A stretch of DNA of 64,000 nucleotides from a virus (Duplodnaviria > Heunggongvirae > Uroviricota > Caudoviricetes): IMG/VR virus record IMGVR_UViG_3300032236_001858; one strand, written 5' to 3'. The translations under genes were made by a program, and so were the position numbers. Position 1 is the first letter of the stretch. Each line of letters begins with the position of its first letter. The notes under the pieces are model-generated. The model was given only the letters and a program-made list of their open reading frames with translations, made no database searches and was not told the origin of the DNA. Below are positions 19,709 to 58,304 of the stretch, piece after piece.

Positions 19709-19739
19709 TTTGGTATTAAACTTTATTTGATTATATTTG
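19709..19739 (+). promoter_or_regulatory. Bacteroidetes-type sigma-A promoter (TTTG-N19-TATATTTG)
   Basis: TTTG at 19709-12 and TATATTTG at 19732-39 are separated by 19 nt. The ATG of the Sir2 gene is about 10 nt downstream, so the transcript is short-leadered. Confidence 0.45.
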
Positions 19740-33815: not shown

Positions 33816-34526
33816 ATGTATAACAAGATATATGACTTTTGTAAGGTAAGAAATCTTGGTAGTGTTTACTCAAATGGAGATGAACCTACACCAAGAGTTA
33901 AGTTCATTACTGGTTTACTAGAATCAGAAGGAATTGACTATGAATTAGATATATTTAAGTCAAGAAATCTTTCTTGTTATAATGTTATTATGAAGGGCAA
34001 TTCAACTAAAATGGTTGTTGCTCATCATGATATTAGCAACCCTAATATTGATAATGCTAATGATAACTCAGCATCTGTTATCAATGCTATTATGATTAAG
34101 AAGTTAATGCCTCATATGAACGTAGTTCTTTTAGATGGTGAAGAATGTGGCGGTTTAGGATCTCAAAGAGTCTCAGATCAAATCAATGAAGGTTACTTTG
34201 GCAAAATTGACTGGGTTCTTAATTTAGAATTGACTGGTCGTGGTGGTGATACCTTTTTCATCGGTGATTATAGAGGTGTATTATTTGACCATATTAAATC
34301 AATGTTTGATTGTGTAGTTTACAAAACTCCATTTAATGATTCTGTAGTATTCAGAAAAAATGGAATAGATTCATGTGTGATTAATCCTTTACCGACTTTA
34401 ACTAACGGAAATATGGATTATTCTATGTTATATAATTGTCATAATCAAAAGGATACATTATCAACAATCGATGTTAATGATATGCGTATTTTTGTTGAAA
34501 AAGTTTTATGTAAAATACTACAATAA
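33816..34526 (+). CDS. M28/M20-like zinc-exopeptidase-fold protein
   Basis: VVAHHD ... NDNSAS ... LLDGEECGGLGS resembles the HxD...DD...EE metal-ligand order, with the Asp-Asp pair substituted. Confidence 0.35.
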   Translation: MYNKIYDFCKVRNLGSVYSNGDEPTPRVKFITGLLESEGIDYELDIFKSRNLSCYNVIMKGNSTKMVVAHHDISNPNIDNANDNSASVINAIMIKKLMPHMNVVLLDGEECGGLGSQRVSDQINEGYFGKIDWVLNLELTGRGGDTFFIGDYRGVLFDHIKSMFDCVVYKTPFNDSVVFRKNGIDSCVINPLPTLTNGNMDYSMLYNCHNQKDTLSTIDVNDMRIFVEKVLCKILQ

Positions 34527-35198
34527 CTTCCAACTCCAAAAATATCCATAACTTTTTTTAATATCACCATTACAACATTTTCTTATACATGCCCTATTGA
34601 ATCCTAATTCTCTTTCAATACTACCAGTTGATATCCACTCTTTAATTAGGTTTTTATTAATATCATATTGATAAACACTTTTTTTATTTTGTTGAGACAA
34701 TGATAGTTTTATTTTAGTTTCATCACTTCTTTTTACTCTAAGTTTATTTTTAGTCTCTTCAGTTTGTTTTTTTCTACTAAATTTTTCTTTAAGATGTCCT
34801 TGTAGAATATCTTTTTCATCTTTGTATTTCCAAACATATCCTCCAGATGTTTTATATTTACCACTAGCAGCATTGCCTATGTTGATAATACCAGTTGATG
34901 AAATAGCCTCTTTTATCGAATTAAACTCACATATTAAAATATTATCCTTAAATTGCATGACAGGCTTAGACATTAGTTCGATTCTTTCTTTACTCTTATC
35001 TTTTCTACCCTCACCACCATCTGTTAAATTAACTAATGGACCAAGTTTCATATCTCTTCTACCTATTTCATTTATTACGAGAGATTCTAATTCAAAAGCT
35101 TTTTTCTCATCTAGCTTCTCATAAACTTTTATTATAATTGGATATTTTAATTTAAAATATGATGGATATGATGAAGGTGACGTGCCTGATAGATTCAA
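34518..35198 (-). mobile_element. freestanding GIY-YIG homing endonuclease with NUMOD3 repeats
   Basis: The ...NLTDGGEG end of a GIY-YIG domain is followed by repeated ETKNKL / ETKIKLS NUMOD3-type DNA-binding motifs. Confidence 0.55.
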
Positions 35199-41683: not shown

Positions 41684-44600
41684 TTATCTGATAGAAGTGT
41701 TAATTGCATTAGTTACTTTTCTAACGATTACTTTACTTCTATTTATATTAAACTTGATACTGAATACAAATGGTCTGTTTTCTGCCTCATTTTCTAAGAA
41801 GAATTTAACCTTCTTAACATGTTGTACCGTCTGTCTAGATGAATTTAGATTAATGTATTTATAGTTTAATCCACTTTGATTATTGTCTAAAGAATTCATT
41901 TTGAAGTAAATATTCAAAGGAATAACGGTAGAATTAGCATCACCAGTATCAATTGTTTTTATTTTATCTGAGTTTGTTTCTACAATTGTTTCTAAGTTAT
42001 GAACAACTGGATGTATAGTTGTTAATAATTTAGCCGTAGATGATACAGAAACATTCGTATCTATCCACTTTGAAGGATCTAATAAAGATTTATTATTACC
42101 AACAAATGATAAAATAGCTGTTTCATTAAATCCTACATTATATTCATTAGAAGATAAAACATTAGTAATAGAGTTTGATGCGTTTGTTGTAAATAAATTT
42201 CCTACATTTTCTGTTAACTTAGTAACAGATGTGTCTAAAACAGAATCATAATTTATCATCCAAACATATTGGTTATCTAATTGTGTTCTGGTTTGACCTG
42301 AAATATCTGAAGTTATTAACTCATCGTGGTCATTAACCCAGAATGTTTGAGGAACACCTGTGTTATAAACACTTGGGTTTTGTAAATAAGTTCTATTAGA
42401 AAGTAATCCTAATGGAGAACTTGTTGACTTATTTCTAATCTTAACAACATAGTCTTTAATAACATAGATATTATTAGCATAAACTCTACCAGTTGGTATT
42501 CCAGAACCAGTATATGGATCAAGATAATCTTCACACTCAACATTAAATGTTGTTTCACTTCCATTAGCAACTGCAAACTCTTGGTTATTTCTAAGAATAA
42601 CAACTTCAAGTTCACCTTTAACCATTTTAATTTTCTCTTCAAGAGTAGCAATTCTATCTTGTAAGGATTTTAAGTAAGTAAATAAGTCTAAAGCAACACC
42701 ATTGGCATCCTTAAATCCAGATAATATCTTAGTTGCATCATGATGAAAAGTAACATTATTTACAACAATAGTATCTGATAAGTGATCATCTAAACCTTTA
42801 GCTGATAACTCTTGATTTACCTTAACTTTTAAGTCTTCAGATGTTGCTGCTTGTAATATAAAGTCATTTTCATTTAAAACATTATTTAAATCATTTGGAA
42901 ACTCAATAGTTAAAATATCAGACCAATCTGATTCTACTGGAGACTCAGGCCAACCTACTTCAGATATAGATTTAATTCTAACATCTATTTTTTCATTAGC
43001 TTGAATATCTAAGTCTAATTGGTTAATATTAGGAGTATCAGCACTTTCAATATTTTGGATCTCCCAAGTATATTCACCAGTACCTTGATTATAAACTCTT
43101 TTTCTAGCATCTGTTTTAAATTCATTCCAGTTAGAGAATGCTGCTTTTGTTTGAGTATTATCAACTGCAAATGTTTCAACTGGTGGTTCAGTACCATCTT
43201 TACTTAAATATCTATATTGAACTCTAAATTGAACAATCTCTTGTGGTCTTGTACCTCTTGTAACAACAGCAGACGGTATAGTCCAGAAACCTCTAATTCT
43301 AAACTTAGGTTGTACCTTTGTTTGAGGACTATTTGATAACTGAATAATTTCTTGAGTTGTAGTAGCAAGTAATTTAGACTTACTATCTTTTTTTCTTGTA
43401 AGCTCTTCAATTTCAAGATTTGCTTGTTTTTTATCAGATTCAGATTTGAATTTGACAAATTTAGCTTTAGCATTTTTATCAACAATAGCATCAGAAATTT
43501 GTTGTATCTCAGATTGTAACGTAAGATGATAATTATGCTTTTGTTTAATTAAATTAGAATCAGGAGTATCTGTTAAGTGTTTATTAATTTGAACAACTTT
43601 AAAGTTAGCCGAATTCAATGTTGGTGCAACTGGTGTGCCAGCTAAAGAATTAGGAGTCTTTTTGGCAACCAAGTCTTTCAATACCGTACCATAGTCATAT
43701 ACATAGTCTGTATAGAATTGCTCCATTGTAAGACCATTTTGAGGTGATGTTGAATCTAATGTTAAATCATTAGTCCAATATCCTGTACCTAAGCTCCAAT
43801 TTCTTGCCAATAGATTAACATCGGCATTTAATGGTTTAATAAAAACTACATTTCTCTCGTTATAACCAACACTTACTTTTACTGTTTTAGTGTAAAGAAC
43901 TGGTGAGTAAATTTTAAGAGTTCCAATTCCAACAGGAATTGCTTCAACACCTTCAACTCTTTCAAATCTAACTCTTGGGCTAGATTCTGCAGTAGATACT
44001 TCAATTACTTTATATCTTGTTGAAGTTTGAGCTGAATTAATAATAACTTCACTACCAACAGATAATTGAGCTGTTTGATTGGATGCTCTAACTAAATATG
44101 TTAAAGTATCTAAAACATACCAAAGTTTTCTATTAATTCTATCTTCTTGAATTCTAAGAACTGAAAACTGACCATCATATAACAAATCTTGAGGGTCTAA
44201 ATCAAATACTTGCTCATCAAATTGAGGATTAGTAGGATAAAGAACACCTGGTGTTGTACTATGCCAGTTTTCAAAATCAGTTATAACAATTGAAGAATTA
44301 CCTCTAAATAAAGTATTAAAGCTATTCAAAGCTGATTGTCCAAGTGCTGTTAAGTTACCTGAAGCATCAGTTGCAAAATCTACAATGTATCTTCTACTTA
44401 AAACCTTTCTTACATTATCTTCTACTTTTCCAGTTAGATCTAATTCAATAGAAACAATTGGACTCATAAGTCCATCAAAAAACCAATTATTAACCGCCTT
44501 AAATTTAGTAAGTGTACCAAGTGTTCCGACAGCATTTGGTTCTCTATTTAAGTCAACTGTAATTATTTTTTTATATTTATTCTGGCTTGATGTTGATATC

Positions 44601-44904: not shown

Positions 44905-44936
44905 TTTGTTTTTGTTAAATTATTTCCTTAATTTTG
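44905..44936 (+). promoter_or_regulatory. Bacteroidetes-type promoter (TTTG-N20-TAATTTTG)
   Basis: TTTG at 44905-08 and TAATTTTG at 44929-36 with a 20-nt spacer, just upstream of the ATG at 44940. Confidence 0.45.
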
Positions 44937-44939
44937 TTT

Positions 44940-45179
44940 ATGATGAAGATTTACAAAGTAACATTTAATGATGGTGGTTGGCATAGTGGACCACTACCTA
45001 GTACAACAATAGTTGCTGAATCTGGTGATGATGCAAAGGAAAAGGCACTATTATTAAACCCAATGTATAAAAATAGGTATGATGTTTGGGTCTCTGAATT
45101 CAAAATAGAAGGCTATGTAATAGAGGTTTATGATGAAAAAACATATAACCGTGAAAAGAATCTTAACAAAATTCTTTAA
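44940..45179 (+). CDS. hypothetical protein
   Basis: The ORF track starts it at a TTG at 44934. The first ATG is at 44940. Confidence 0.4.
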   Translation: MMKIYKVTFNDGGWHSGPLPSTTIVAESGDDAKEKALLLNPMYKNRYDVWVSEFKIEGYVIEVYDEKTYNREKNLNKIL

Positions 45180-45208
45180 TTAATAAAAAAATTAACTATC
45201 TTTGTAAA

Positions 45209-47038
45209 ATGATTGAACAATTAAAAGCGCAAATTATTAAGGCTAATGATGCCTATAGATTGGGTAAGCCAATCATATCCGATGCTAAATACGACCAATT
45301 AGTTGAGGAACTTCAAATGTTATCACCATCTGATGAAATACTTTCTAAAGTAGGTCATACAGTTGCTGATGAATCCCGCAAATCTCGTCTTCCTATAGAA
45401 ATGGCTTCAATGAATAAAATCAAGTCAATGGAAGATATCGAAGATTGGTCACGTCTTAAAGGTATTTCAAAATACGAATATGTTATTATTACTCCTAAGT
45501 TTGATGGTCTTTCATTATGTGTTAATGAAACAACATCCGAAGCTTGGACTCGTGGTGATGGTGTATTCGGCCAAAAATCAAATGAACACTACTCATTAAT
45601 TCAAAATCATCTTAACCTACAAGAAGATTCATTTAGCTTTACCTATGGTGAAGTTATGATGCCTAAACAAGTATTTGTTGATAAATACTCAGCAGACTTT
45701 GCTAATCCTCGTAATCTTGTTGCTGGTCTTTTAAATTCAAAAGATCCAAGTAATATTCTTAAAGATTGTCAGTATATTAAGTACGGTGCTATTTGTAAAA
45801 GAAACTTCTTTACTAAACAAAATGTTATTAATGAACTTAATAAAGGACAAGCATCAAAAGTACAATATCATATTTGTCAACTATCTGACTTATCAGAAGA
45901 CTTACTAATTGAACTATTCCATAAATTCTCTACTGAATATGAAATCGATGGTTTGATTATAGAATTAAACCGTCTTGAATTACAAGATCAGTTAGGTCGT
46001 GAAACATCTTCAAACAATCCTGTTTGGGCTCGTGCTTTCAAGCATCCAAGTTTTGAACAATCTGCTGAAACTGATGTTATTGGTATTTCTTGGAATATAT
46101 CTAAACAAGGCTTATTAAAGCCAATTCTACATATTAATCCTGTTAAACTAGATGGTGTAACCGTGTCTAATGTTACTGGTAACAACGCCAGATTCGTAAA
46201 AGACTTAGGACTTGGTATTGGTGCTAAAGTAGTCGTAAAACGCTCCGGAATGGTTATTCCAATCATTGCTGATGTTATCACCCCAGTTGAATTTGTTCAA
46301 CCTACAATTGAAGGTGTTGAAGTAGATTGGAATGAAGCTGGTATTGAGTTAATTACTTTAACTGAAACTGACGATCAAAAATTAAAAAAGATTGTTGCTT
46401 TCTTTGAAATCTTAGAAGCTGACAATGTGTCAGAAGGAGTTATCACTCAATTATGGGAAGCTGGTTACAAAACAATTAAAGATGTTCTTAATCTTAAAAA
46501 AGAAGATTTAGAGAAAATTGACCGTTTTGGTAAGAGAAAAGCTGAGATTGTTTTTAACTCTATTCAAAAGTCTGTTAGTGGTGTTCAGTTGTCTAAACTA
46601 CAACACGCAACAGGTATCTTCAAAGGATTAGGTTCTAAGAAATTAGTTCTTTTAGAAGATTTCAAAACTAAACCAACATTAGACCAAGTAATGTCAATTG
46701 AAGGATTTGCTGAAGTATCAGCTCAATCTTATATTGATTCATATGACACGTTCTTTGATTTCATTAAAGATTTACCTGTCACAATTATAGAAAAAGTAGA
46801 GGCGGTTAAAGTTGGCACAGACCTTGAAGGTAAATCATTTGTCTTTACCGGAGTTCGTAGACCAGATTTAGAATCTGTGATTGAATCTCGTGGTGGTAAA
46901 ATTGGTTCTGGTGTGTCTAAAACAACTACTCACCTTGTGATGAAGGCGATTGGTAGTGGCTCTTCTAAAGAAAAGAAAGCTATTGAGTTAGGTGTTGAAG
47001 TGATTACAATTGAACAATTAGAAAAAATGTTATCATAA
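45209..47038 (+). CDS. ligA: NAD-dependent DNA ligase (LigA-like)
   Basis: KxDG adenylation motif (ITPKFDGLSL), OB/HhH region, and a C-terminal BRCT (GKSFVFTGVRRPDLE...). Confidence 0.85.
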   Translation: MIEQLKAQIIKANDAYRLGKPIISDAKYDQLVEELQMLSPSDEILSKVGHTVADESRKSRLPIEMASMNKIKSMEDIEDWSRLKGISKYEYVIITPKFDGLSLCVNETTSEAWTRGDGVFGQKSNEHYSLIQNHLNLQEDSFSFTYGEVMMPKQVFVDKYSADFANPRNLVAGLLNSKDPSNILKDCQYIKYGAICKRNFFTKQNVINELNKGQASKVQYHICQLSDLSEDLLIELFHKFSTEYEIDGLIIELNRLELQDQLGRETSSNNPVWARAFKHPSFEQSAETDVIGISWNISKQGLLKPILHINPVKLDGVTVSNVTGNNARFVKDLGLGIGAKVVVKRSGMVIPIIADVITPVEFVQPTIEGVEVDWNEAGIELITLTETDDQKLKKIVAFFEILEADNVSEGVITQLWEAGYKTIKDVLNLKKEDLEKIDRFGKRKAEIVFNSIQKSVSGVQLSKLQHATGIFKGLGSKKLVLLEDFKTKPTLDQVMSIEGFAEVSAQSYIDSYDTFFDFIKDLPVTIIEKVEAVKVGTDLEGKSFVFTGVRRPDLESVIESRGGKIGSGVSKTTTHLVMKAIGSGSSKEKKAIELGVEVITIEQLEKMLS

Positions 47039-47039
47039 T

Positions 47040-47387
47040 ATGTCACTAATATACCATTTAGGAAAAGCTGAGACTTCTCAAGAAGGGGTAAAGGATTTAG
47101 TAAAAGATTTAGAAACTTGTGTACAAACACTTGAGAATATTAATAGTATTCTAAAAGGTTCAAAATATGGAAGGTCATATGCGGAAACCGAAGTCAATAA
47201 AAAGATTGAAGATGGTATTTTAGATTCAATTCACAATGCTAATAATCACCAATTAAGTGTTATATTAAATGGTGGATATAGATTCAGATTCTATACTGAA
47301 TTGAACGATAAAGAATTATTAAGAAACGAAATACAAAAAAGATTAAGACATAACAAATTAAAAGAATTACTAAATGACAGAATTTAA
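47040..47387 (+). CDS. hypothetical protein
   Basis: 115-aa ORF. Confidence 0.45.
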   Translation: MSLIYHLGKAETSQEGVKDLVKDLETCVQTLENINSILKGSKYGRSYAETEVNKKIEDGILDSIHNANNHQLSVILNGGYRFRFYTELNDKELLRNEIQKRLRHNKLKELLNDRI

Positions 47388-47784
47388 TTATAACCCAACA
47401 ATAACTGATAGAGTTATTAAGACAAAAGAAGAACAATTTGATAAGTTTTTTTATCAAGGGCATCCTAAGTTTTTAATTCCGGATTTTAATCAAAATCCTG
47501 AGGATATTTGGTTATCATATATGGACTTCTTGGAAAATAATCATTCTTGTGAGATATATGATCAAGATGGTGGTGAAGTTCACTCAATTGAAATCATTGA
47601 TGAAGATTCTGGTTTGACAAAATGTATCTATACTGCTTGTGGTATAACGCTTGATGAAAGTGATGAACCGCAAGATGTAGATGTCGAGATAGAAGGTTAT
47701 GTTGTTGAAATTCCAGAAAATGGATTTAATGACTATGTATTTGTTGCTAAAAAAGTTTTTGAAAATTATAAAATGTCAATTTAA
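47374..47784 (+). CDS. hypothetical acidic protein
   Basis: 136-aa ORF. Confidence 0.45.
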   Translation: MTEFNYNPTITDRVIKTKEEQFDKFFYQGHPKFLIPDFNQNPEDIWLSYMDFLENNHSCEIYDQDGGEVHSIEIIDEDSGLTKCIYTACGITLDESDEPQDVDVEIEGYVVEIPENGFNDYVFVAKKVFENYKMSI

Positions 47785-47786
47785 TT

Positions 47787-48164
47787 ATGATTTGGTTAGG
47801 AATTTTAATAGGATTTATATTAGGTCTTCCAATTGGATTTATCAAGTGGAAGAAAAAGCCTGTTGTTGAAAAGTATTCAAGAAGAGGTTTATTAAAAAAG
47901 AACTTTTCTGTTACTGACAATCTTTCTAATAGAAAAAGTTCAGTTGATGTTATGTATGAGATTGGTGAGTTAGAATCAACTGATAAGTTATCAAAGATTG
48001 AAGTTATTGATCTTAAATCTGACCAATCTGAATACAATACAGATTATAATAAAAAGAGATTAACCGATATGGTTAATAAAACCTGGCTTGGATCTGATGA
48101 AATTACTTGGATTACAACTGCTGCTGATGTGAGAAATAAAAAAATCGACAAAATATTAAATTAA
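47787..48164 (+). CDS. hypothetical membrane-anchored protein
   Basis: N-terminal hydrophobic helix MIWLGILIGFILGLPIGFI. Confidence 0.45.
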   Translation: MIWLGILIGFILGLPIGFIKWKKKPVVEKYSRRGLLKKNFSVTDNLSNRKSSVDVMYEIGELESTDKLSKIEVIDLKSDQSEYNTDYNKKRLTDMVNKTWLGSDEITWITTAADVRNKKIDKILN

Positions 48165-48165
48165 T

Positions 48166-48618
48166 ATGGATAATCAAAAACTAGAGAAGATATTTAGTTA
48201 TCTACCACCTTCACTTGATAAAGTTAAAAATAACTTGAGTGAGAATGGTCAGAAAATTGGTCTAAAAACAGGATATGAACCTTACATTCAACACATTCCA
48301 GAAATGATTGAAGAAGCTCAAAGTGTTTTCATTGAGCTATGTGTTCAAGAAGGTATTTTAGACAAAAAGTTTTTAAGTGGTAAAGTTCATCGTCAAGGTA
48401 TTATTGGTAGATATTTAGATGATTCTGGTTCTGGTATTTATAAGTATTGGAATAGATTTATGTGTATTGATGAAAAATATCGTGAGTGGGAACAACCATA
48501 TTACGCAATCAACTTTGAAAAAGAAGGTAAAGATTTTCATGGCTGTTGTATAAACACTATGTCTCCAGAATTGATTTCTTTTTTTAGAGACCAAAAAATT
48601 AATGAAGTATTATCATGA
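48166..48618 (+). CDS. hypothetical protein
   Basis: 150-aa ORF. Confidence 0.45.
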   Translation: MDNQKLEKIFSYLPPSLDKVKNNLSENGQKIGLKTGYEPYIQHIPEMIEEAQSVFIELCVQEGILDKKFLSGKVHRQGIIGRYLDDSGSGIYKYWNRFMCIDEKYREWEQPYYAINFEKEGKDFHGCCINTMSPELISFFRDQKINEVLS

Positions 48619-48923
48619 ACGGATTTGAAAGTTTAAGAATACCACATATAAAGTATATTTCTGAAACTCAATCAAAGAGTAAAGGAGAAAGAACTTTATA
48701 TTATTTAGGTGGAGAACCAGAAGAAAATCATTCAAGATTAACCATAGGTAAACAATATGTAGTTAGAACTGCTTCTTACTCACCAAGTGCTGATATTGAG
48801 CGAGTTAGTGTATGGTTATGTTCTGATGATGAAAATAAAGGTAGATTATGTAGGGTAAATCTAAATAATTTCGGTACCTTTGCAGATGTGCGTGATAGAA
48901 AAATAGACCAGATAATTAAGTAA
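48615..48923 (+). CDS. hypothetical protein
   Basis: 102-aa ORF. Confidence 0.4.
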   Translation: MNGFESLRIPHIKYISETQSKSKGERTLYYLGGEPEENHSRLTIGKQYVVRTASYSPSADIERVSVWLCSDDENKGRLCRVNLNNFGTFADVRDRKIDQIIK

Positions 48924-48938
48924 AAACAAACCAAATAT

Positions 48939-49727
48939 ATGACTATTGAACCCCATGAAGAATTAAAAATTTCCCAAAATTATGATGAAAAAAATCTCTC
49001 AGGAGAGCCAACTTTTGCTGATATATATAATATAAATTTAGGTGAGCAATCACCATTAACGGCAGAAAAAGGCAATACCATTGAGGATGAATTAATGACT
49101 CCTCAAACAAAAAATGAACGGCAAATTATGGAATCGAAGGCGATTTTATTCAGTGATCAAGAAAAACTATTTAGAGAAAGAACGGGTAAAGATTTCTCTA
49201 CACTCTACACAAAGTATTACCCAAAATTAGTATATTTTACATCTAAAATATGCAATGACCCTCAAAAGGCAGAAGATATCTCAACAGATTCATTCATGGC
49301 AGCTTTTGAGAAGATTGAGAAATATGAAAAGGAAAAATCTCAATTCTCTACATGGCTATTCACAATAGCAAAAAACTTAGCACTTCAAGACCTTAAAAGC
49401 AACAAAAAAACAATGTCTTTAGATATTGAGTTTGATGATGAAGGTACAACAATGAAAGACTTTATTCAAGAAGAAGATGGTGATAATCTTATTCATGAAA
49501 TTCATGCCAAAAAAGCTGAAATTATGAAGAAGCACATTCAAAACTTGAAAAATCCTTATCGTGATGTAATTGAAATGCGTGAGTTAAAAAGAATGTCTTA
49601 TAAAGATATTTCTGACCAACTTAATCTTAACCTATCAACGGTTAAGTCACAAATTCGTAATGGAAGAGCTATCTTAGTTCGTGAAACTAAGAAAGAGTTT
49701 GATGCGATTGATGAAATGTTAATGTAA
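48939..49727 (+). CDS. ECF-type sigma-70 family RNA polymerase sigma factor
   Basis: Region 2 (YYPKLVYFTSKI...AEDISTDSFMAAFEKI...FSTWLFTIAKNLALQ) and a region-4 helix-turn-helix (MSYKDISDQLNLNLSTVKSQIRNGR). Confidence 0.65.
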   Translation: MTIEPHEELKISQNYDEKNLSGEPTFADIYNINLGEQSPLTAEKGNTIEDELMTPQTKNERQIMESKAILFSDQEKLFRERTGKDFSTLYTKYYPKLVYFTSKICNDPQKAEDISTDSFMAAFEKIEKYEKEKSQFSTWLFTIAKNLALQDLKSNKKTMSLDIEFDDEGTTMKDFIQEEDGDNLIHEIHAKKAEIMKKHIQNLKNPYRDVIEMRELKRMSYKDISDQLNLNLSTVKSQIRNGRAILVRETKKEFDAIDEMLM

Positions 49728-49731
49728 TTAT

Positions 49732-51027
49732 ATGAACATAGAATCTCTAGGAAGACAGGCTATAGATAGAATCAAGTCTGAATGGGGCTTGCCCTTACAC
49801 GGATTTGTCGCTGGAGGTGCCATCGCAAACATTGTTTGGGAATTGGTATCAGGCAACAAAGCAGTGGTCAATGATATTGACATCTTTGTTTTTGATGGTA
49901 TTGAAAAAGAAATAGATTCAAATAAAAATTCTCTTTTCAATTACCAAGAAAAAGAAACAAAGTATTATGAAGACTATAATGGTATGAATTTTAATAATTA
50001 TACCAAGGATTTCTATTCTATAGTTGAGTCTGAGAGAGACGATATGTTTAATACTATTAAATATAAATCAAACACATCAGATCCTTCTTTAATTATTAAA
50101 TCATTTGATATTAATGCCACCCGCATCGGTTACGATATTGATAATGATAAAATCTATTGGACTTCTGAGTTTGAAGACTTCTTAAAAACTGGTGAACTAA
50201 AGATTACAAATCTTATGACACCTTCTCACACCGCAATTCGCATTGCTAAAAAGAATAAAGAGTTAAATGCTAAACTTGATGAATTTGAATTCAAATTAAT
50301 TCAATATGCTCTTTCTTATAGATTTATAGATAGAATCAAACTAAGATTTAGAGAAAGATATTTAGAAATGTGTAGAGAGTATAAAGATGTACTAACTAAG
50401 TATTTTCAAATGTCAAGAGATTTAGAATCTGAGGAATGGGTTTTAAGAGAAAAAGGCGAAAAAGTAGAACTTTATTATCTAGTAGCTAGAGATTATGAAC
50501 TGGAGAAAATTACTGATGAGTTTGAAAAAATTGTTTACAGTAGTTTACCTAAAATCTTTGATGATGAGAATATTAATAAGATATTCAAGTCAACCGACTT
50601 CTTATTCTATATGAGAAATATCTATAATAAAGAACAAAATATTAAAGATATGTGGTCTAAGCTATACTACTTCTTTAATGATGTTCACTATATAGATAGA
50701 GAAATTAACCAAGAAGATATGCAACTCTTAGAAAGATTTGCTAAATACGCTCCAGATTCTATTGAAAATCTTAAAGGTCTAAAAATCTCTGAGCAAATAG
50801 AAATTATTAAAAAGTTTTTAGATACATTTAAGGAAGATCCATTAATAGCAATTTCAATTTTAGAAAATACTAGAGTTGATAAGAACATTGTTTTAGATGA
50901 GCAAACTATGTTACTTTTAGAACTTTCTGTAAGAAAAAAAATTATTAATGATACTCGTGGTAAAGTCAATAAAATCTTGAATATTGAGGAAGCTGTTGAA
51001 AGTAAACCAGGTGATATCATCTGGTAA
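49732..51027 (+). CDS. Pol-beta-superfamily nucleotidyltransferase, CCA-adding / poly(A)-polymerase-like
   Basis: GFVAGGAIANIVW...NDIDIFV matches the GGxVRDxLLG...DxD head motif. FDINATRIGYD resembles RDFTINA motif B. 431 aa. Confidence 0.4.
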   Translation: MNIESLGRQAIDRIKSEWGLPLHGFVAGGAIANIVWELVSGNKAVVNDIDIFVFDGIEKEIDSNKNSLFNYQEKETKYYEDYNGMNFNNYTKDFYSIVESERDDMFNTIKYKSNTSDPSLIIKSFDINATRIGYDIDNDKIYWTSEFEDFLKTGELKITNLMTPSHTAIRIAKKNKELNAKLDEFEFKLIQYALSYRFIDRIKLRFRERYLEMCREYKDVLTKYFQMSRDLESEEWVLREKGEKVELYYLVARDYELEKITDEFEKIVYSSLPKIFDDENINKIFKSTDFLFYMRNIYNKEQNIKDMWSKLYYFFNDVHYIDREINQEDMQLLERFAKYAPDSIENLKGLKISEQIEIIKKFLDTFKEDPLIAISILENTRVDKNIVLDEQTMLLLELSVRKKIINDTRGKVNKILNIEEAVESKPGDIIW

Positions 51028-51077
51028 TTCTAAACTTTCTTGATATATAAAATATAAAATAAAAAATAATAAGAAAT

Positions 51078-51401
51078 ATGGTAGCATATATAACAGAATT
51101 AAATGCAGATAACTATGACAACTTTGTTAAAGAAGGATTAGTACTTGTTGACATTTGGGCGGCTTGGTGCGGTCCTTGTAAAATGATTTCACCTATTGTA
51201 GATGAAATCTCATCAGACTATGTTGATAGACTTAAAGTTGGTAAATGTGACGCTGATGCAAATAGAGATAAAGTTATGGAACTTGGTGTTAGAAATATTC
51301 CTACACTTTTCCTTTACAAAGATGGCCAAATTGTTGAAACTACAAAAGGTGCTATAACAAAAAAGGCAATAACTGAACTCATTGATAAACACTTATCATA
51401 A
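51078..51401 (+). CDS. trxA: thioredoxin
   Basis: WAAWCGPCK active site. 107 aa. Confidence 0.85.
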   Translation: MVAYITELNADNYDNFVKEGLVLVDIWAAWCGPCKMISPIVDEISSDYVDRLKVGKCDADANRDKVMELGVRNIPTLFLYKDGQIVETTKGAITKKAITELIDKHLS

Positions 51402-51976
51402 TGAAAGATATTGGTTACCTTTTTGACCTATTGAAAAAATCTAACATATCTCTATTGGGATATAAATTTAATCAAGAAAGGCTTAAAGATGAGATTATTT
51501 CAAAACTACCTCACTTGGTGGTTCATGAAATAAACTCGTCTTTTTCTTTTAAATCTTTTTTAAGAGATTTGAAACTTCAATCAATTTTAGAAACTAGTGA
51601 GACTATAAAAAATCCAGAGTATCTTGTTTTAGATTTGAATGATATTAGATTTAAATCAGATGATTTAGGTGATAGACAAAGACAAATATCTAATATTCTA
51701 AATAGGCTTAGAGAAGATATGTACTCTGGTTCTGATGTGCCTTATAAACTTTTGATACTCACCTCACTATACAGTAGTGGAAAGAACGTCGATGATGTTA
51801 ATATTACAAATTTTTCTGGCGGTAGCAAACCAATCTTTATGAGTGACGTAGTATTTGTAATGCAAGAAGAATCAATGAAAGTAATAAAGAATAGATTTGA
51901 TGAAAACAACATTGATATTTCTTACAATAAATTAAAAGATTATAACTATATTTGCAACTATGAAAATAACAACTAA
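51401..51976 (+). CDS. hypothetical protein
   Basis: 191-aa ORF between trx and smpB. Confidence 0.45.
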   Translation: MKDIGYLFDLLKKSNISLLGYKFNQERLKDEIISKLPHLVVHEINSSFSFKSFLRDLKLQSILETSETIKNPEYLVLDLNDIRFKSDDLGDRQRQISNILNRLREDMYSGSDVPYKLLILTSLYSSGKNVDDVNITNFSGGSKPIFMSDVVFVMQEESMKVIKNRFDENNIDISYNKLKDYNYICNYENNN

Positions 51977-52406
51977 CAAAAAAGCTTATTACGAATACTT
52001 TGTCATTGAAGACTTTGATGCTGGTATTATGCTTTTAGGAAGTGAAGTAAAGTCAATCAGAGAAGGTAACTTGAGTTTAATTGATTGTTTTGCTTACATT
52101 TCAGATGGTGAACTTTGGTTAAAAAATATGAAAGTGGCTCGATATAAACAAGTCCATGTTGCTGAAAAACATGAAGAAAATCGAGACAAAAAATTACTTC
52201 TCAATAGAAAAGAAATAAATAAAATTGAAAAGTTACTTCAAGATAATGGAACAACTATGGTTCCTTTAGAAGTATTCACAGCACATAATCGAATTAAAGT
52301 TAAGATTGGTGTTGTTAAAGGTAAGAAGCTATATGATAAAAGATCCACTATTAAAGAGAGAGATATAAAAAGAGAGATAAACAGAGAAAGTAATTTTAAT
52401 ATATAA
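51960..52406 (+). CDS. smpB: SsrA-binding protein SmpB
   Basis: KKAYYEYFVIEDFDAGIMLLGSEVKSIREG ... RDKKLLLNRKEI ... KIGVVKGKKLYDKRSTIKERD aligns along the full length with bacterial SmpB. Confidence 0.8.
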   Translation: MKITTNKKAYYEYFVIEDFDAGIMLLGSEVKSIREGNLSLIDCFAYISDGELWLKNMKVARYKQVHVAEKHEENRDKKLLLNRKEINKIEKLLQDNGTTMVPLEVFTAHNRIKVKIGVVKGKKLYDKRSTIKERDIKREINRESNFNI

Positions 52407-52425
52407 GTAAATATATTTATGTATT

Positions 52426-53298
52426 ATGTTAAACAATAAAGAAAAATCAATAAAATATTTATTGGAGAATTACTCAGTTAAATCAAAGGTTGAAATACAA
52501 AATGATTTAAATTTATCTTGGTCTTATATACAAAAATTAGCATGTCTTAATGGTATTAAAAGAACATCAAATGAGTCACCAAATGATTGGAGATATAAAA
52601 AGTTAATAAACTATAATGATAATATCTCTATGTATTGGATAGGATTTATGATAGCAGACGGTCATATTTCTAAAAAGAAGAATATACAGATTAATATATC
52701 TATAAAAGATAAACTACATCTGTTAAAAATAACAGAACATATTGGTAATATTTCTATAAATCTAACTGATAGTCAAATAAGAGCTACTATAAACGATAGA
52801 AGAACTACGAGTGTTTTATCAAATGATTTTAAATGGCTTTCTAATAAGACAAAAAATCCAATAGAAATACCAAAAATTATTTCTGAGGATTCTTTATTTA
52901 GTTTAATTATTGGATTTATAGATGGTGATGGTACCATAAATAAAAAAGGACATATTTTTGTTAAGTGTGATGGTTCTTGGAAGAATAATTTGGAATATTT
53001 TTATTATATATTAACAGGTGAAAAAAAAGTATTTAATCTAACAAGTGATGGTTTATCCATAATCTATATTCTTAAATTTAAGAATTTAATTCAAATTAAA
53101 GAAAGAGCTAAATTATTAAATTTACCAATAATGAGTAGAAAGTGGGATAGAATAGAAAATAAAGTTTTCAAGAGTGATAAATATGAGATTGTTAAAACTC
53201 TACTTAAAGAAGGTAATTCTATTAAAGAGACAATTGATAAAACAAACTTTGGACAAACTCTTGTTTATAAAGTTTATAAAGAAATTAATAAAATTTAA
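52426..53298 (+). mobile_element. freestanding LAGLIDADG homing endonuclease
   Basis: Two LAGLIDADG motifs, WIGFMIADGHI and LIIGFIDGDGTI. Confidence 0.65.
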
Positions 53299-53299
53299 A

Positions 53300-53662
53300 A
53301 TGGCTCGTAAACCTAAAGATATAAATCCTCTTTTGGACAAACTCAGTAAATCACTTACTGAAGAAGAAATTCTTAAACATCTTGTTAAATTGGTAAAATC
53401 ATTTGATCCTTACCAGTATAAAGAAGTCATATATAATAACCCTTATTACAAGTCTTTAATTCCAGATATTCAAGTTGATATAATCAAAGATTTAGAAAAT
53501 GTTAAAGATTCTTTAGTAAAAGAAATTGAAAAGATAGAGTCAGATCTTAAAAAGATTGGAAATAAAGACTCTGCGGAACAATTAAAAAATCTTAAAAGAG
53601 ATTGTTTGGCTTTAATCTATGAAATTGATGAACGTAAAAGAGAGATAGATAGTTTATCTTAA
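53300..53662 (+). CDS. hypothetical coiled-coil protein
   Basis: The ORF-track start at 53174 overlaps the endonuclease gene. The ATG at 53300 (MARKPKD) follows its stop. Confidence 0.4.
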   Translation: MARKPKDINPLLDKLSKSLTEEEILKHLVKLVKSFDPYQYKEVIYNNPYYKSLIPDIQVDIIKDLENVKDSLVKEIEKIESDLKKIGNKDSAEQLKNLKRDCLALIYEIDERKREIDSLS

Positions 53663-55300
53663 TAAAGAGTCAACATATCTTTCAATGTGTTTAGCTTTCT
53701 TAATGTCTTCTATAATTTCTTCTTCCCTTCTTTTATCAATTCTATCAATATAATACTCAGTATCACCAGAATACTGAAATTCATTTAAAATATTTCTGGT
53801 ATAAAAAAACGTAAGTCCTCTTTCATTAGATAAACTTTTAATAGATTTTAATTTAGCTATAACCATTGATAAATCTTCAATAGTTTGAATATTCTGAGAA
53901 AGTAAATAATTTTTGATCTTTTTACCAATTTCCATAAATATTTTAAATATTTCCTTAATTGCCTCATTATTAGAATTATTAACTATGTTAAGAGACTTAA
54001 TATATAGCTTTATATAGTCCTCATTATAAGAATTTAGTGATTTGAAACTACTAACAATATTTGATAAGTAATAATGTCTATCTGATTCATCAGCTTTCAT
54101 TATTTCATAAATATTATTAGACATACTATCTAAAGTGTCAAATCCTGGTCTACTTTTATAAATTGAAATAAAAGCAAAATCACTACAAACTGATTTTATA
54201 ACTAATTTTTGAAGATTTTTAAGTTCAGTAATATCTTGTTTAATACCCATTTTACCAACTAATGCAGACATGTATCTTTCAATGTTAGCCTTTTTTATTT
54301 CAGAATCACTTACTAATCTAGTAGCACCTTCTCTTGATTCAGTTCTACTTTTTCTTACATCACTAACTTTAGTTCCAACAGATTTAAGTACATCACCAAT
54401 CATTAAAACAATAGCAAAGTCTGATCTATCAACTGATTTATAATCATATATTGACCAATCTGTTTCACCCCACTCTCTTAAATTATAATTTTTATTTACT
54501 GGAAGATTGAAATCAAATGGATTTGATTCTTTTTTCTTTTCTTCTTCTTTTATTTTTCCTACTACATGTATAGGTTCATCTGATGGTGTATAAATATGTA
54601 GTTTACCATGGTCACTAGCTGGTGAATCCACATCACCCATTGTCCAAGAATCTATAAATCTTGAATCTTGATTTCTCCATTCTCTCCAATTTACTCCATC
54701 TACCGCACGGTCAGGTGTTCCACCATTAGCAACATTTTGAATGGCGTTAAGATGATCATTGTCATCTCTCCATATTTTAGCTAACGACAATCTATTTAAA
54801 TCTTCATAATCTTCAGACCAAACACCAATAACTAATTGGCCATGTTGTAATTCATTATAATCTTTAACCGGTGTTAATTTACCTGTTTTTATATCTAATG
54901 TGTTTTTTATGTAATCTAATTCTTCATTACTAAATGGTTCATTCTGATTTGTTTTTGCATAACCTTTAAGATACTTATTAAAATCCATTGTAAGATCACC
55001 TGTACCTGTGAATCCTAAATATCCCTCATCCATTGAGAACCAGAATTTCAAACAGTATAGACCTCTTTCATCTTCCTCAGTTGATTTTATTTTAAGTGCT
55101 TGATTTTTATTAAGATACTTAACATTATCATCTTTGATTTTATCAATAGGAATATCTAATTTAGCTATCATAGTTTTTAATTTATCACGGAATCTTTCTT
55201 TGGAATTATTATCTACTTTACTTTTCAAAAATTTCATCATTTTTGACAAAGCATTAGATTCAAAAGCCTCAAATAACATTAGATATTTCATGTCTGACAT
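53654..55300 (-). CDS. hypothetical protein (548 aa)
   Basis: Long ORF with no recognisable motif. Confidence 0.55.
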   Translation of the reverse strand: MSDMKYLMLFEAFESNALSKMMKFLKSKVDNNSKERFRDKLKTMIAKLDIPIDKIKDDNVKYLNKNQALKIKSTEEDERGLYCLKFWFSMDEGYLGFTGTGDLTMDFNKYLKGYAKTNQNEPFSNEELDYIKNTLDIKTGKLTPVKDYNELQHGQLVIGVWSEDYEDLNRLSLAKIWRDDNDHLNAIQNVANGGTPDRAVDGVNWREWRNQDSRFIDSWTMGDVDSPASDHGKLHIYTPSDEPIHVVGKIKEEEKKKESNPFDFNLPVNKNYNLREWGETDWSIYDYKSVDRSDFAIVLMIGDVLKSVGTKVSDVRKSRTESREGATRLVSDSEIKKANIERYMSALVGKMGIKQDITELKNLQKLVIKSVCSDFAFISIYKSRPGFDTLDSMSNNIYEIMKADESDRHYYLSNIVSSFKSLNSYNEDYIKLYIKSLNIVNNSNNEAIKEIFKIFMEIGKKIKNYLLSQNIQTIEDLSMVIAKLKSIKSLSNERGLTFFYTRNILNEFQYSGDTEYYIDRIDKRREEEIIEDIKKAKHIERYVDSLLR

Positions 55301-55320
55301 ACTCTATATATTAAAAAATA

Positions 55321-55352
55321 TTTGGTAAAATAAAACTTTATTCTTAATTTTG
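55321..55352 (+). promoter_or_regulatory. Bacteroidetes-type promoter P1 (TTTG-N20-TAATTTTG)
   Basis: TTTGGTAAAATAAAACTTTATTCTTAATTTTG is about 80% identical over 40 nt to the promoter at 57882. Confidence 0.5.
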
Positions 55353-55787
55353 TATAACAAACAAAGAGTCGTTAAGACAAAAGTTAAGAAATTAACAAGT
55401 TGAAAGACTTCACATTATAAACAATTTAGAAGATAAGTGTGAGTCTTAACGAAATTATGGTAGTAAGTAGCTGTTAAATATGTTAACACCCTTGTTAAAG
55501 CCAGTGAACTACCTTGTATTATATTATATGATAATAGTAAGGGTGTAGATATCAAAGTCGTGTTGGTGATAGATGTCTCAAATATAACTAAATGAATAAA
55601 CCCAACTCAAAGAAGATTAAACCGAGCAGAATGGTAACACTGCTCAACCGAGGCGAAAGCATATTAAAAGGTAATCCTAAGTGATGAGGTCACTAAAAGT
55701 TAAGGTAAGGTTCTCGGATTTCGACCATACTTAGCAGGCGTTCCAAACATCTTCTTTTTTTATTAAAAATTATTAAAAACAAAGTAT
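55353..55787 (+). ncRNA. candidate structured non-coding RNA or long structured leader
   Basis: A 435-nt ORF-free stretch downstream of promoter P1. GC content is locally raised, with several hairpins (GAGCAG..CTGCTC, GTGATGAGGTCAC) and a tmRNA-5'-like TTCTCGGATTTCGAC element. Confidence 0.3.
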
Positions 55788-56195
55788 ATGACACTGAAAG
55801 AAAAAATTAACGCAGACTTCATTACAGCTTTTAAATCTAAAAACGCTGTTGCTAAAAGTATTTTATCCGTAGTAAAGGGTGAAATTCAAAATATTGAAAA
55901 GAACGTAGGCTCTGATAATCTTTCAGATGTTGAAGTAACTAAGATTTTAACAAAGACTGTTAAATCTCTTAAAGAAACTATTGCATTAAGCAATGACGAA
56001 AAATCTAAGCTTGAATTAGCTATTGTTGAAGTTTATCTTCCAAAGCAAATGTCTAAAGAAGAAGTTACTGCTAAAGTAACAGAACTTGTAAATTCTGGTA
56101 TCACTCAAATTGGTGCCATCATGAAAGAATTTGCAACTCTTCCAGCTGACAAGAAAATGGTCTCTGAATCAATCAAAGAAGTTACTAAACAGTAA
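55788..56195 (+). CDS. GatB/YqeY-domain protein
   Basis: VYLPKQMSKEEVTAKVTELVNSGITQIGAIMKEF aligns with YqeY (YLPEQLSEEEL...GA.S..DMGKVMG). Confidence 0.6.
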   Translation: MTLKEKINADFITAFKSKNAVAKSILSVVKGEIQNIEKNVGSDNLSDVEVTKILTKTVKSLKETIALSNDEKSKLELAIVEVYLPKQMSKEEVTAKVTELVNSGITQIGAIMKEFATLPADKKMVSESIKEVTKQ

Positions 56196-57084
56196 TTTTT
56201 GTTGTAGATGATGATGCACCAGCAACATTAACTGCATTCAAGGTAATAGTATATGTGTGACCGGTGTAAGCATAATTATAGTTATAGCTTCCACCGTTCA
56301 CTACTGTTGTAGTTATTTGACTTGGGTTAAAATTCTGATTGTTATAAAGTTGGGTTCCTAATTCTGAGTATATTATACCACCTTCTGAAATAATCACTTG
56401 ATAAGCATCAACACCCGATAATTGATTCCAAGAGATATTTAATATTACATTATTATTCATTGGATTTATAGAACTACAAGTAAGACCTAAAGAGCCGGAA
56501 GGAATAGCAAAAGAGGCAGCTCTTTCACTCCACTTTGATATATTTCCATAAGAGCCATTAGCCCATTTAACAGTTTCAACTGTTCCAGAGACTGTAACTT
56601 TTTTAATAGACCAAGTATTATCAGTATCAGCAGCATTCATATCATATGAATATCCATAATAAGTAACTGGTGGATTAATATCTCTTCTTATCCAATTTAT
56701 AGCATTATAAGAACTAATAACTTTTTCTTCAACAATCATATATAATTGACCTGACTCGCTATATCTAGCTGACATACCACTACTACGAACTATTTTAACA
56801 GAATATGTATATGTACCTGCAACTGGTGTATCAATAACCGACATAGCAACTGTCATATTTAATCCACCTGTTGGAGTTTCAATGTGTAAAACCTCACCAA
56901 TAGCTGTTGAATCTCTAAATATTTGCAATTCATGCCATCCAGATCCACCTGGCTCAGCATCACCTGTAACAGTTACTTGAACTGGAAATCCACTCGTTGT
57001 TATAGAAGCGGTTTGTATAGTACTACCCGTAGCACTTAACGTTACTTGTCCATTGTTACCAATTGTATAATTTAAATCTATCAT
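56185..57084 (-). CDS. structural protein with Ig/FN3-like repeats
   Basis: 299-aa beta-rich Thr/Ser/Val ORF. TTTTAATATATACAAT lies about 18-32 nt upstream. Confidence 0.5.
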   Translation of the reverse strand: MIDLNYTIGNNGQVTLSATGSTIQTASITTSGFPVQVTVTGDAEPGGSGWHELQIFRDSTAIGEVLHIETPTGGLNMTVAMSVIDTPVAGTYTYSVKIVRSSGMSARYSESGQLYMIVEEKVISSYNAINWIRRDINPPVTYYGYSYDMNAADTDNTWSIKKVTVSGTVETVKWANGSYGNISKWSERAASFAIPSGSLGLTCSSINPMNNNVILNISWNQLSGVDAYQVIISEGGIIYSELGTQLYNNQNFNPSQITTTVVNGGSYNYNYAYTGHTYTITLNAVNVAGASSSTTKITV

Positions 57085-57102
57085 TTTGAAGTTTTATAGT
57101 TT

Positions 57103-57119
57103 ATTGTATATATTAAAAG
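57103..57119 (-). promoter_or_regulatory. putative late promoter (TTAATATATACAAT)
   Basis: Recurrent motif oriented toward the ATG at 57084. Confidence 0.4.
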
Positions 57120-57185
57120 TTTTTGTTTTAATTTCAGAAAAAACAAATTAATAAGTTTTCTATATAAAAAATAAAAATAAAAATT

Positions 57186-57398
57186 ATGGCTTATTTAAGA
57201 GATGGTGGAATTATCACTGAAAGAGATTATGTTGGGAAAACATTAGAAGAAGCAACACAATATGCTGAAAGTGGTGGGTTTGAAGTAAGAGTTGTTGAGG
57301 TTGATGGTCAATCTAAAATGCTTACTATGGATACTAAATCAAATAGAATTAATTTCAGAGTTCGTGGTGGTTATGTAACTGCGGCTTTTGGAGGATAA
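57186..57398 (+). CDS. hypothetical protein
   Basis: 70-aa ORF. Confidence 0.35.
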   Translation: MAYLRDGGIITERDYVGKTLEEATQYAESGGFEVRVVEVDGQSKMLTMDTKSNRINFRVRGGYVTAAFGG

Positions 57399-57412
57399 AA
57401 ATTTAAAATAAT

Positions 57413-57444
57413 TTGGTGAATTAAAAATGTCACCGTATATTTGT
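57413..57444 (+). promoter_or_regulatory. Bacteroidetes-type promoter P2 (TTTG-N20-TATATTTG)
   Basis: TTTGGTGAATTAAAAATGTCACCGTATATTTG, about 95 nt upstream of the gene at 57538. Confidence 0.45.
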
Positions 57445-57537
57445 ATTCACAAAACAGAACTGATAACTGTAAATAATCAGTGGAGCCGTTATTGAAATTC
57501 ACGTTAGAAATTTCCTTAAAATTAAAAAGGAAAATCT

Positions 57538-57879
57538 ATGAAGTCATTATGGCAATGGGAAAAACACGATGTTGTTAATTACCTAAGAGCAAATTTTTTA
57601 GAGACAGATGTTGAGTTTACAACAGAATCTCTAATTAAAAAGATTAACAAATCAAAATCAAAATCTTACGGTTTTGGTTATATTGATAAGATAATATCAA
57701 AGCACTTATCTGATTTGGCAACAGACGGATATCTAACAGTTAGATATGTTTCTGTTAAAATGGAACCAAATGAAGAATACTGGTATTCTGAAAAATGTAA
57801 AAAAAGATTTGGTTCAAAGACAGTATCAGTCTATAAAATGGTAGGAAGAGAGGAAAAAATAAAAAAAATATTGAAATAA
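57538..57879 (+). CDS. hypothetical protein
   Basis: 113-aa ORF. Confidence 0.45.
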   Translation: MKSLWQWEKHDVVNYLRANFLETDVEFTTESLIKKINKSKSKSYGFGYIDKIISKHLSDLATDGYLTVRYVSVKMEPNEEYWYSEKCKKRFGSKTVSVYKMVGREEKIKKILK

Positions 57880-57881
57880 AT

Positions 57882-57913
57882 TTGGTAGAATTAAAACTTT
57901 TTACTAATTTTGT
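57882..57913 (+). promoter_or_regulatory. Bacteroidetes-type promoter P3 (TTTG-N20-TAATTTTG), candidate tRNA-island promoter
   Basis: TTTGGTAGAATTAAAACTTTTTACTAATTTTG, a paralogue of P1. Confidence 0.45.
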
Positions 57914-58097
57914 ATAAAATAAGAACAAAAATAACAAAAGAGACAATAACTTTTTAATATATAAAGAAATGAGAACAAATAATACACATAAACATTTTAG
58001 TAAATCGAATAAGTGGTTTAGCAACCAGTTCGGTACTGAAAGTGTATTGCTCTCAAATAAGATGTTAAAAGTCTAATTTTAGATAAACAATATTCAA

Positions 58098-58131
58098 AAG
58101 TCCGAACTTCAAAAAAGTTCGGACTTTTTTG
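58098..58131 (+). terminator. rho-independent terminator-like hairpin
   Basis: AGTCCGAACTTCAAAAAAGTTCGGACT followed by T6, immediately 5' of the first tRNA-like gene. Confidence 0.5.
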
Positions 58132-58139
58132 TTTTATAT

Positions 58140-58225
58140 GGTGTCGTTATTGTTAACGGAGAGTCGAAAGACGAGCATCTGGCTCTGTGAAAGCCAGGGT
58201 ACGGGTTCAAATCCCGTACGACACC
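58140..58225 (+). tRNA. tRNA-like, His anticodon GTG with a G-1:C73 pair, atypical (about 10 extra nt in the D region)
   Basis: Acceptor GTGTCGT/ACGACAC, anticodon stem TGGCT/AGCCA with loop CTGTGAA, T arm ACGGG-TTCAAAT-CCCGT. The D region runs 58150-58178. Confidence 0.35.
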
Positions 58226-58231
58226 CAAGAA

Positions 58232-58304
58232 GGAACCTAAGCTAATCAGGTGAAAGCACTGGACTGAAAATCCAGGGAGCCCGGATCGTTACCGGGAGGT
58301 TCCA
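58232..58304 (+). tRNA. tRNA-Phe(GAA) variant with a non-canonical T-loop (ATCGTTA), encoded CCA
   Basis: Acceptor GGAACCT/AGGTTCC, anticodon stem CTGGA/TCCAG with loop CTGAAAA, T arm CCCGG-ATCGTTA-CCGGG, then A-CCA. Confidence 0.45.

Follow-up and report, generated by a model that had tools for sequence, protein, structure and literature searches.

The window analysed here, the complete stretch of 64,000 nucleotides (nt) taken from the virus record IMGVR_UViG_3300032236_001858 (Caudoviricetes), contains three sequences between positions 55,321 and 57,913, referred to as P1, P2 and P3, which closely resemble promoters read by the primary sigma factor (sigma-A) of Bacteroidota. Together with at least four further sites in the window they appear to be working promoters of this type, carried by a megaphage related to the genomes LR745206 and LR756502; we put the probability of this reading at roughly 0.75. 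The sites are strongly enriched in non-coding DNA, have a geometry relative to start codons and to a structured RNA that fits transcription from them, and are conserved in related phages. The comparative results for P1, P3 and the sites next to start codons are indirect, yet they concern features which would be specific to promoters. A second, phage-specific class of motifs, TTAATATATA, stands ahead of most other genes, among them likely structural or virion genes.

Host-type sites in the window

An exact scan of the window (29.7% G + C, 93% coding) for TTTG-N18-21-TAnnTTTG yielded 11 matches with 3.3 being expected, and a total of 11 was reached in one of 100 shuffles. In non-coding DNA eight matches stand against 0.23 expected, which corresponds to an approximately 35-fold enrichment over composition-matched shuffles. 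The maximum among 2000 dinucleotide-preserving shuffles was three matches, and a repeat run agreed with this result. Seven of the eight non-coding matches, all of them on the plus strand, lie in sense with a downstream gene or RNA. These are P1, P2 and P3, each with a spacer of 20 nt, and the sites at 19709, 44905, 60723 and 63347 with spacers of 19–20 nt (Table 1). The initial annotation of this DNA had proposed that P1, P2 and P3 fit TTTG-N20-TAnnTTTG, which the exact scan bears out, although its starts for P2 and P3 (57413 and 57882) were one base too high (57412 and 57881). The two extra matches which it named, at 19709 and 44905, were likewise recovered, while the sites at 60723 and 63347 are additional to its list.

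The eighth non-coding match (55579–55611) is oriented antisense inside the RNA downstream of P1, is not conserved in the related contig L005 and was treated as chance, as were the three matches in coding sequence (8798, 29275 and 32112). The match at 29275 remains uncertain; it begins with TTTGGTA and is located 65 nt ahead of a gene start. An analogous scan for the E. coli-type -35/-10 consensus between 53000 and 64000 found 59 matches compared to 53.3 ± 6.7 expected, and hence no enrichment.

In start-site maps of Bacteroidota the box TAHHTTTG is located at -12 to -5 with transcription starting 4–5 nt past it (PMC6847099; PMC9723704), the variable positions of this -7 box are without G and the accompanying -33 signal is weak (PMC9723704; PMC7366714; PMC6847099). 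The TAnnTTTG boxes in non-coding DNA of the window never have a G at their variable positions and thereby fit the refined form TAHHTTTG. A -33 TTTG at the appropriate distance (about 17–23 nt) from the -7 element is present at all seven sense sites. Moreover, the -33 region of the window sites is extended to ATTTGGTA, and a subclass carries the element AAAACTTT at about -25 to -18. P1 and P3 both combine ATTTGGnA with AAAACTTT, and this is also true of the Sir2 promoter and of several sites in related phages. As promoters of Flavobacterium johnsoniae have AT-rich signals at -18 and -28, AAAACTTT may be related to these signals.

An identity of about 80% over 40 nt had previously been described for P1 and P3. 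Indeed, 32 of 40 positions are identical in an ungapped comparison, which makes them the top pair among the seven sites (other pairs: 18–28 of 40). Paralogy of the sites, which was also proposed, need not be assumed, however. P1 is conserved in one orthologous series and P3 in another, the extended consensus is common to both, and as this consensus accounts for their identity, a recent duplication is not needed. In the literature collection that was searched, no phage promoter study describing TAnnTTTG or TAATATATA was found.

Related phages and conservation of P1, P2 and P3

At the DNA level the window matched only LR745206 (635 kb) and LR756502 (642 kb), two uncultured phage genomes with which it is syntenic and with which it has protein identities of mostly ~35%–86%. 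A search of IMG/VR using the protein of 548 amino acids (aa) encoded divergently from P1 and the 113-aa protein encoded downstream of P2 revealed no close relatives. Relatives in IMG/VR were instead found via the core of the P1 RNA, GCAGAATGGTAACACTGC. The related contigs L002–L008 and L010 were used for comparison with the window (W), while a match in L011 turned out to be a chance match within a coding region.

The -7 box of P1 is invariant in eight distinct genomes, and the -33 TTTG as well as the spacer element AAAACTTT are retained in most of them. In the transcribed flank past the -7 box the majority fraction falls to 0.52. Transcription from the predicted start of P1 would produce a conserved structured RNA of ~400 nt, homologs of which are present in L002, L003, L004, L005, L006, L007, L008 and L010. 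From the predicted start to a 3′ GTTCC, this RNA has a length of 394–402 nt in seven aligned genomes. RNAalifold predicted 60 pairs, of which 14 exhibit compensatory changes, and a 5′ helix with such changes starts ~12 nt past the predicted start. A search against Rfam (E ≤ 1) over 55250–58260 gave no family matching the ~400-nt RNA. A comparison by eye with transfer-messenger RNA (tmRNA), considered since SmpB is encoded nearby, RNase P RNA, group I introns and T-box leaders revealed none of the defining features of these RNAs. In the window the RNA is followed by a YqeY-like gene (55788–56195), and it is located upstream of this gene in eight of the nine genomes with the RNA; in the exception, L006, the RNA is instead found after the end of a gene.

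P2 is located upstream of an open reading frame (ORF) of 113 aa (57538–57879), for which no family match was obtained. P2-like sites occur after the ortholog of a 70-aa gene in L002 (42122) and L003 (37851).

The complete 32-mer of P3 is identical in L008. It belongs to a module which was found in six genomes (W, L008, L010, L004, L003 and L002) and which comprises, in this order, the promoter, TTAATATATA, a small ORF, a hairpin with a T-run and a tRNA. The N-terminus of the small ORF reads MRTxNxHKHFSKSxKWFS across genomes. The site at 60723 exhibits the same layout, with TTAATATATA at 60775–60784, a hairpin at 60893–60923 and a tRNA-Arg at 60938. The tRNA island had been suggested to be an early function transcribed by the host polymerase. 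P3 is likely a host-type promoter, but it is not simply that of the tRNAs, as the phage-specific motif TTAATATATA, a conserved 35-aa ORF and a conserved terminator hairpin come first. Since the stretches separating hairpins and tRNAs lack any promoter-like motif, the tRNAs would be expressed by read-through from upstream promoters, arranged in tandem and belonging to the two classes, rather than from a host-type promoter of their own.

Both terminator hairpins are followed by the string TTTTTTGTTTTATAT (58125–58139 and 60918–60934, plus strand), immediately ahead of the tRNA that opens each array. The first tRNA-like sequence (58140–58227, plus strand) combines a normal T-arm and an acceptor stem of 8 bp with an anticodon loop containing GTG, while its D region is over-long. 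It was not called by ARAGORN, shows a partial match to the T-arm of the Rfam tmRNA model (58201–58217) and has a homolog in L002 (~42553–42630). Only with the intron option did ARAGORN report a tRNA-Leu(taa) with an insert of 50 nt (59773–59916, plus strand) and a tRNA-Glu(ttc) with an insert of 44 nt in the anticodon loop (60586–60714, plus strand). Three tRNAs called as Lys (ttt, ttt and ctt; 59383–59649, plus strand) are 84–88 nt long, a size typical of a long variable arm and unusual for lysine.

Host-type boxes next to start codons

Boxes of the TAnnTTTG type are located 3–6 nt ahead of the ATG of the genes for DNA ligase and SmpB and of a 79-aa ORF, in each case in W, L002 and L003, as well as ahead of a 133-aa ORF in W and L003. 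No gene was found to start 0–2 nt past such a box. With such a spacing, transcription would begin at the A of the ATG itself, which fits leaderless mRNAs.

The promoter at 44905 is positioned at the head of a block of plus-strand genes (44940–52406) which includes the genes for an NAD-dependent DNA ligase, a sigma factor of the extracytoplasmic function (ECF) type, a thioredoxin and SmpB, and which exhibits host-type promoters only. As AATATATA, a form of the second motif, does not occur between 44881 and 52398, the sigma factor gene is situated within a block served exclusively by host-type promoters. The sigma factor has an N-terminal extension of ~80 aa. Its best NCBIfam match is TIGR02985, a Bacteroides-type ECF subfamily, with a score below the cut-off, and its best match among solved structures is SigW. 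Every >634-kb phage genome of the collection encodes a homolog, and further homologs are present in Lak phages and in crAss-like phages of human faecal origin. SmpB (51960–52406, plus strand) was identified as an NCBIfam equivalog with 178 bits, and no tmRNA was found in the window by ARAGORN or Rfam.

A second motif class

The TTAATATATA-class motif is enriched in the non-coding DNA of the window and of both related megaphage genomes. Within the window, 17 of 78 genes have AATATATA at a distance of ≤80 nt on their upstream side, which corresponds to an enrichment of 13-fold. The consensus of this class is tTTAATATATA[A/C] and there is no information upstream of it; a -35-like partner was sought and not found. 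The end of the motif is separated from the ATG by either 4–7 nt or 14–25 nt. The motif is found in either orientation, and TTAATATATA or a close variant accompanies nearly all minus-strand units. At five divergent junctions (19.7, 28.2, 44.9, 55.3 and 63.3 kb) it precedes the minus-strand gene, with a host-type promoter serving the plus-strand gene. Genes with the motif upstream include one encoding a 1055-aa protein, whose PTm1 homolog adjoins head-completion and neck genes, and those for a collagen-repeat protein, an M16 peptidase and homing endonucleases.

In having a TA-rich element near -10 without a -35 element, upstream of many phage genes, TTAATATATA has the form of known single-element promoters of phages. 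A phage sigma factor without region 4, as a reader of such promoters, was not found, the only sigma factor found in the window having region 4, and there is no gp55-like protein among the scanned window proteins.

Three genes of the window are homing-endonuclease-like (34518–35198, minus strand; 52426–53298 and 58686–59228, plus strand), the types being NUMOD1, LAGLIDADG and HNH. TTAATATATA stands immediately upstream of the genes at 52426–53298 and 58686–59228, and the tRNA region contains the HNH gene.

Table 1. Coordinates of candidate promoters, class-2 motifs and associated features in the window.
Feature	Position	Strand	Basis and remarks
Sir2 gene, putative sigma-A-type promoter	19709..19739	+	ATG 9 nt past -7 box; box conserved in L002, gap 10 nt
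Putative sigma-A-type promoter of predicted leaderless 79-aa ORF (44940-45179)	44905..44936	+	conserved in L002, L003
-7 box TATCTTTG of NAD-dependent DNA ligase (45209-47038)	45197..45204	+	4 nt ahead of ATG; conserved in L002, L003
Phage-encoded ECF-type sigma-70 family factor	48939..49727	+	Pfam regions 2 and 4_2 (Sigma70_r4_2); phrog_1740 match
-7 box TATATTTG of SmpB (51960-52406)	51947..51954	+	5 nt ahead of ATG; same 5-nt gap in L002, L003
TTAATATATA, class-2 motif of divergent 548-aa gene (53654-55300)	55305..55314	-	back to back with P1; in all 8 genomes
P1, putative sigma-A-type promoter TTTG-N20-TAATTTTG	55321..55352	+	exact scan, conservation; predicted start ~55357
Conserved structured non-coding RNA, ~400 nt, predicted to start from P1	55357..55760	+	homologs and RNAalifold
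P2, putative sigma-A-type promoter TTTG-N20-TATATTTG	57412..57443	+	exact scan; 94 nt upstream of 113-aa ORF
P3, putative sigma-A-type promoter TTTG-N20-TAATTTTG	57881..57912	+	exact scan, conservation; predicted start ~57917
TTAATATATA, class-2 motif in tandem downstream of P3	57954..57963	+	
Conserved 35-aa basic small ORF (MRTNNTHKHFSKSNKWFSNQ...)	57969..58076	+	N-terminus conserved in 5 genomes, sixth copy in L002
Terminator-like hairpin and T-run between small ORF and tRNA array	58096..58134	+	retained with sequence changes in relatives
Fourth putative sigma-A-type promoter	60723..60754	+	ortholog at 10495 in L008
Putative sigma-A-type promoter of predicted leaderless 133-aa ORF (63382-63783)	63347..63377	+	conserved in L003
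Examples of the class-2 motif	3933(-), 6281(+), 15348(-), 19692(-), 44881(-), 55312(-), 57114(-), 63344(-)		

The host

A Bacteroidetes host had been proposed from the promoter motifs, and further, independent lines of evidence agree with this. Shine-Dalgarno sequences (GGAG, GAGG or AGGA at -20 to -5) were found for only two of 55 genes, compared to 4.9% of random 16-mers, so that there is no signal of this kind; the upstream regions of the window genes are A-rich and G-poor. Such an absence of Shine-Dalgarno use is a known state of Bacteroidota (PMC6847099). In addition, LR745206 and LR756502 are among the >634-kb genomes for which Al-Shayeb et al. predict replication in Bacteroidetes, like Lak phages (PMC7162821). 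More distant relatives of two window proteins are found in phages of Prevotella, Tenacibaculum, Chryseobacterium and Flavobacterium and in crAss-like phages. For the 1055-aa protein these are Lak phages of Prevotella and phages of the other three genera, with the Sphingomonas phage PAU being the exception. The sigma factor points the same way, with its homologs in Lak and crAss-like phages and its below-cut-off match to a Bacteroides-type subfamily. For the related green sulfur bacteria, a preprint on Chlorobaculum reports a -7 consensus that differs from this one. Judging by these sequence features, a Bacteroidota host appears well supported but is not proven.

Weighing of alternative explanations

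Several observations weigh against the sites being host-read promoters of a Bacteroidota phage. The -33 TTTG is missing in some orthologs, with TTAG being found in P3 of L002 and TTCG in P1 of L004, while P1 of L003 has no TTTG at the right spacing and the Sir2 promoter of L002 has none. This loss is consistent with the weak -33 signal reported for F. johnsoniae. A strong hairpin with a T-run stands between P3 and the tRNAs, and likewise between the promoter at 60723 and its tRNAs. With regard to the host, the distant relative PAU is recorded on Sphingomonas, and the best bacterial matches of SmpB (44–50% identity) are a mixture of Treponema, Clostridia, Bacilli, Kapaibacterium and Bacteroidota, which is uninformative as to the phylum. 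Furthermore, neither motif is enriched in 50-kb samples of PTm1 (Tenacibaculum, Bacteroidota) and PAU, taken as positive and negative controls, where the sampled regions probably hold mostly structural and replication genes; this comparison was likewise uninformative. Lastly, the phage encodes a sigma factor of its own which has regions 2 and 4 and is conserved in relatives. It is conceivable that this factor, or another one encoded elsewhere in the genome, reads the sites instead of host sigma-A, in which case the motif would say less about the host. A sigma factor with both regions is expected to read a two-part promoter, and the conserved positions ATTTGGTA and AAAACTTT go beyond the host consensus. 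However, the sigma factor gene is itself placed behind host-type promoters and has no other motif upstream, so that something else must read these promoters first, unless the sigma factor is packaged in the virion. As the boxes, the spacing and the start geometry also match the published consensus of host sigma-A exactly, we regard recognition by a phage sigma factor as improbable.

The spacer element AAAACTTT, which is as conserved as the -7 box and is not explained by the published consensus, leads to the thought that the sites are conserved DNA elements with a different role, such as operators or replication or packaging signals, and that they look like promoters only as a result of AT-rich DNA. 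Yet every sense copy is directed at a gene or RNA, and both the placement of the box 3–6 nt before the ATG (in four gene families and three genomes) and the fixed distance to a covarying RNA helix represent a geometry that is specific to promoters. An origin from base composition also conflicts with the enrichment over composition-matched shuffles, and a role other than that of a promoter is thus very unlikely. Even less probability is assigned to functionless chance matches in DNA of 30% G + C. It is true that four matches out of the 11 seem to be due to chance, namely the three coding ones and the antisense one within the RNA. The observation as a whole is nevertheless real and is not explained by chance, given the enrichment over shuffles, none of the 2000 having exceeded three matches; besides, orthologous positions are conserved across six to eight genomes. 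Promoters of the Bacteroidota primary-sigma type account best for the seven sense sites.

A possible expression programme

If the sites are read by host sigma-A, they would be bound upon phage entry by host RNA polymerase containing this factor, and transcription would begin ~4–5 nt past the final G of the -7 box. P1 would then give rise to the structured ~400-nt RNA and probably to the mRNA of the YqeY-like gene behind it, and P2 to that of the 113-aa ORF. Transcripts from P3 would cover the 35-aa ORF and end in the terminator hairpin, with read-through feeding the tRNA array. The sites positioned on start codons would yield leaderless mRNAs for the 79-aa ORF, DNA ligase, SmpB and the 133-aa ORF. 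One of the operons with host-type promoters carries the gene of the phage ECF-type sigma factor. TTAATATATA would probably come into use later, when the polymerase has taken on a phage-directed form. The two-class layout suggests such a cascade, in which host sigma-A acts first and the phage-directed polymerase then turns to TTAATATATA. That the host-type sites act early is what we infer from their consensus and from the genes which they serve (sigma factor, ligase, Sir2 and SmpB), compared to the likely virion genes behind TTAATATATA.

A more far-reaching and rather doubtful version would be a conserved two-tier programme in which host-type promoters on start codons produce leaderless early mRNAs, the ECF sigma factor with its region 4 reads the single-element TTAATATATA, and AAAACTTT acts as an operator or enhancer of a high-output subclass (the 400-nt RNA, the 35-aa peptide and Sir2). 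If this were true, the reading of a single-element promoter by an ECF sigma factor with region 4 would represent an unusual mode of recognition.

For the uncultured megaphages of this group, what is known about hosts and gene expression comes only from inference. Here, the promoter grammar provides evidence for the host phylum from sequence alone, could sort unannotated genes by the hundred according to whether they are likely early or likely late, and defines where non-coding products such as the 400-nt RNA would start. For Bacteroidota genetics, candidate strong promoters and signals for leaderless expression can be taken from it. Through the conserved two-class grammar and the leaderless placement, the expression programme of uncultured megaphages becomes testable.

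Comparison with known promoter systems

Phages are expected to carry host-type early promoters. The presence of host-type promoters in a phage such as this one is consequently expected biology, and current views are not overturned by it. The early promoters of T4 are strong, have a host-type consensus and exhibit extra conserved positions, in which the host-type sites of the window are like them. The T4 late promoters (TATAAATA, read with gp55) consist of a single TA-rich element close to the start, the sequence of which differs from TTAATATATA.

In phiEco32, early promoters are read via host sigma-70, while the phage sigma factor gp36 reads the single element tAATGTAtA with starts 6–8 bp downstream (PMC8948821). 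The window resembles this system in having two classes of promoter-like sites (one host-type with two boxes and one formed by a TA-rich single element without a -35 element), a phage sigma factor gene and a distance between motif and ATG that allows a start a few bases downstream. However, host phylum and phage family are unrelated, and the single-element promoters of phiEco32 are explained by gp36 lacking region 4. As the sigma factor of the window, unlike gp36, has region 4, its link to TTAATATATA is only hypothetical.

The closest likeness is to the promoters of sigma-ABfr, as described for Bacteroides fragilis, B. thetaiotaomicron, F. johnsoniae and F. psychrophilum. The sites of the window have both boxes, a spacer of 19–20 nt and no G at the variable positions, and they are located in sense upstream of genes with a geometry that fits a start 4–5 nt past the box (PMC6847099; PMC7366714; PMC9723704). 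They differ from these host promoters in being phage sites with the ATTTGGTA extension and the AAAACTTT subclass. Moreover, an unusually large share of them lies directly on a start codon, whereas in the hosts leaderless mRNAs and those with very short leaders make up only ~4–13% of mRNAs according to these studies.

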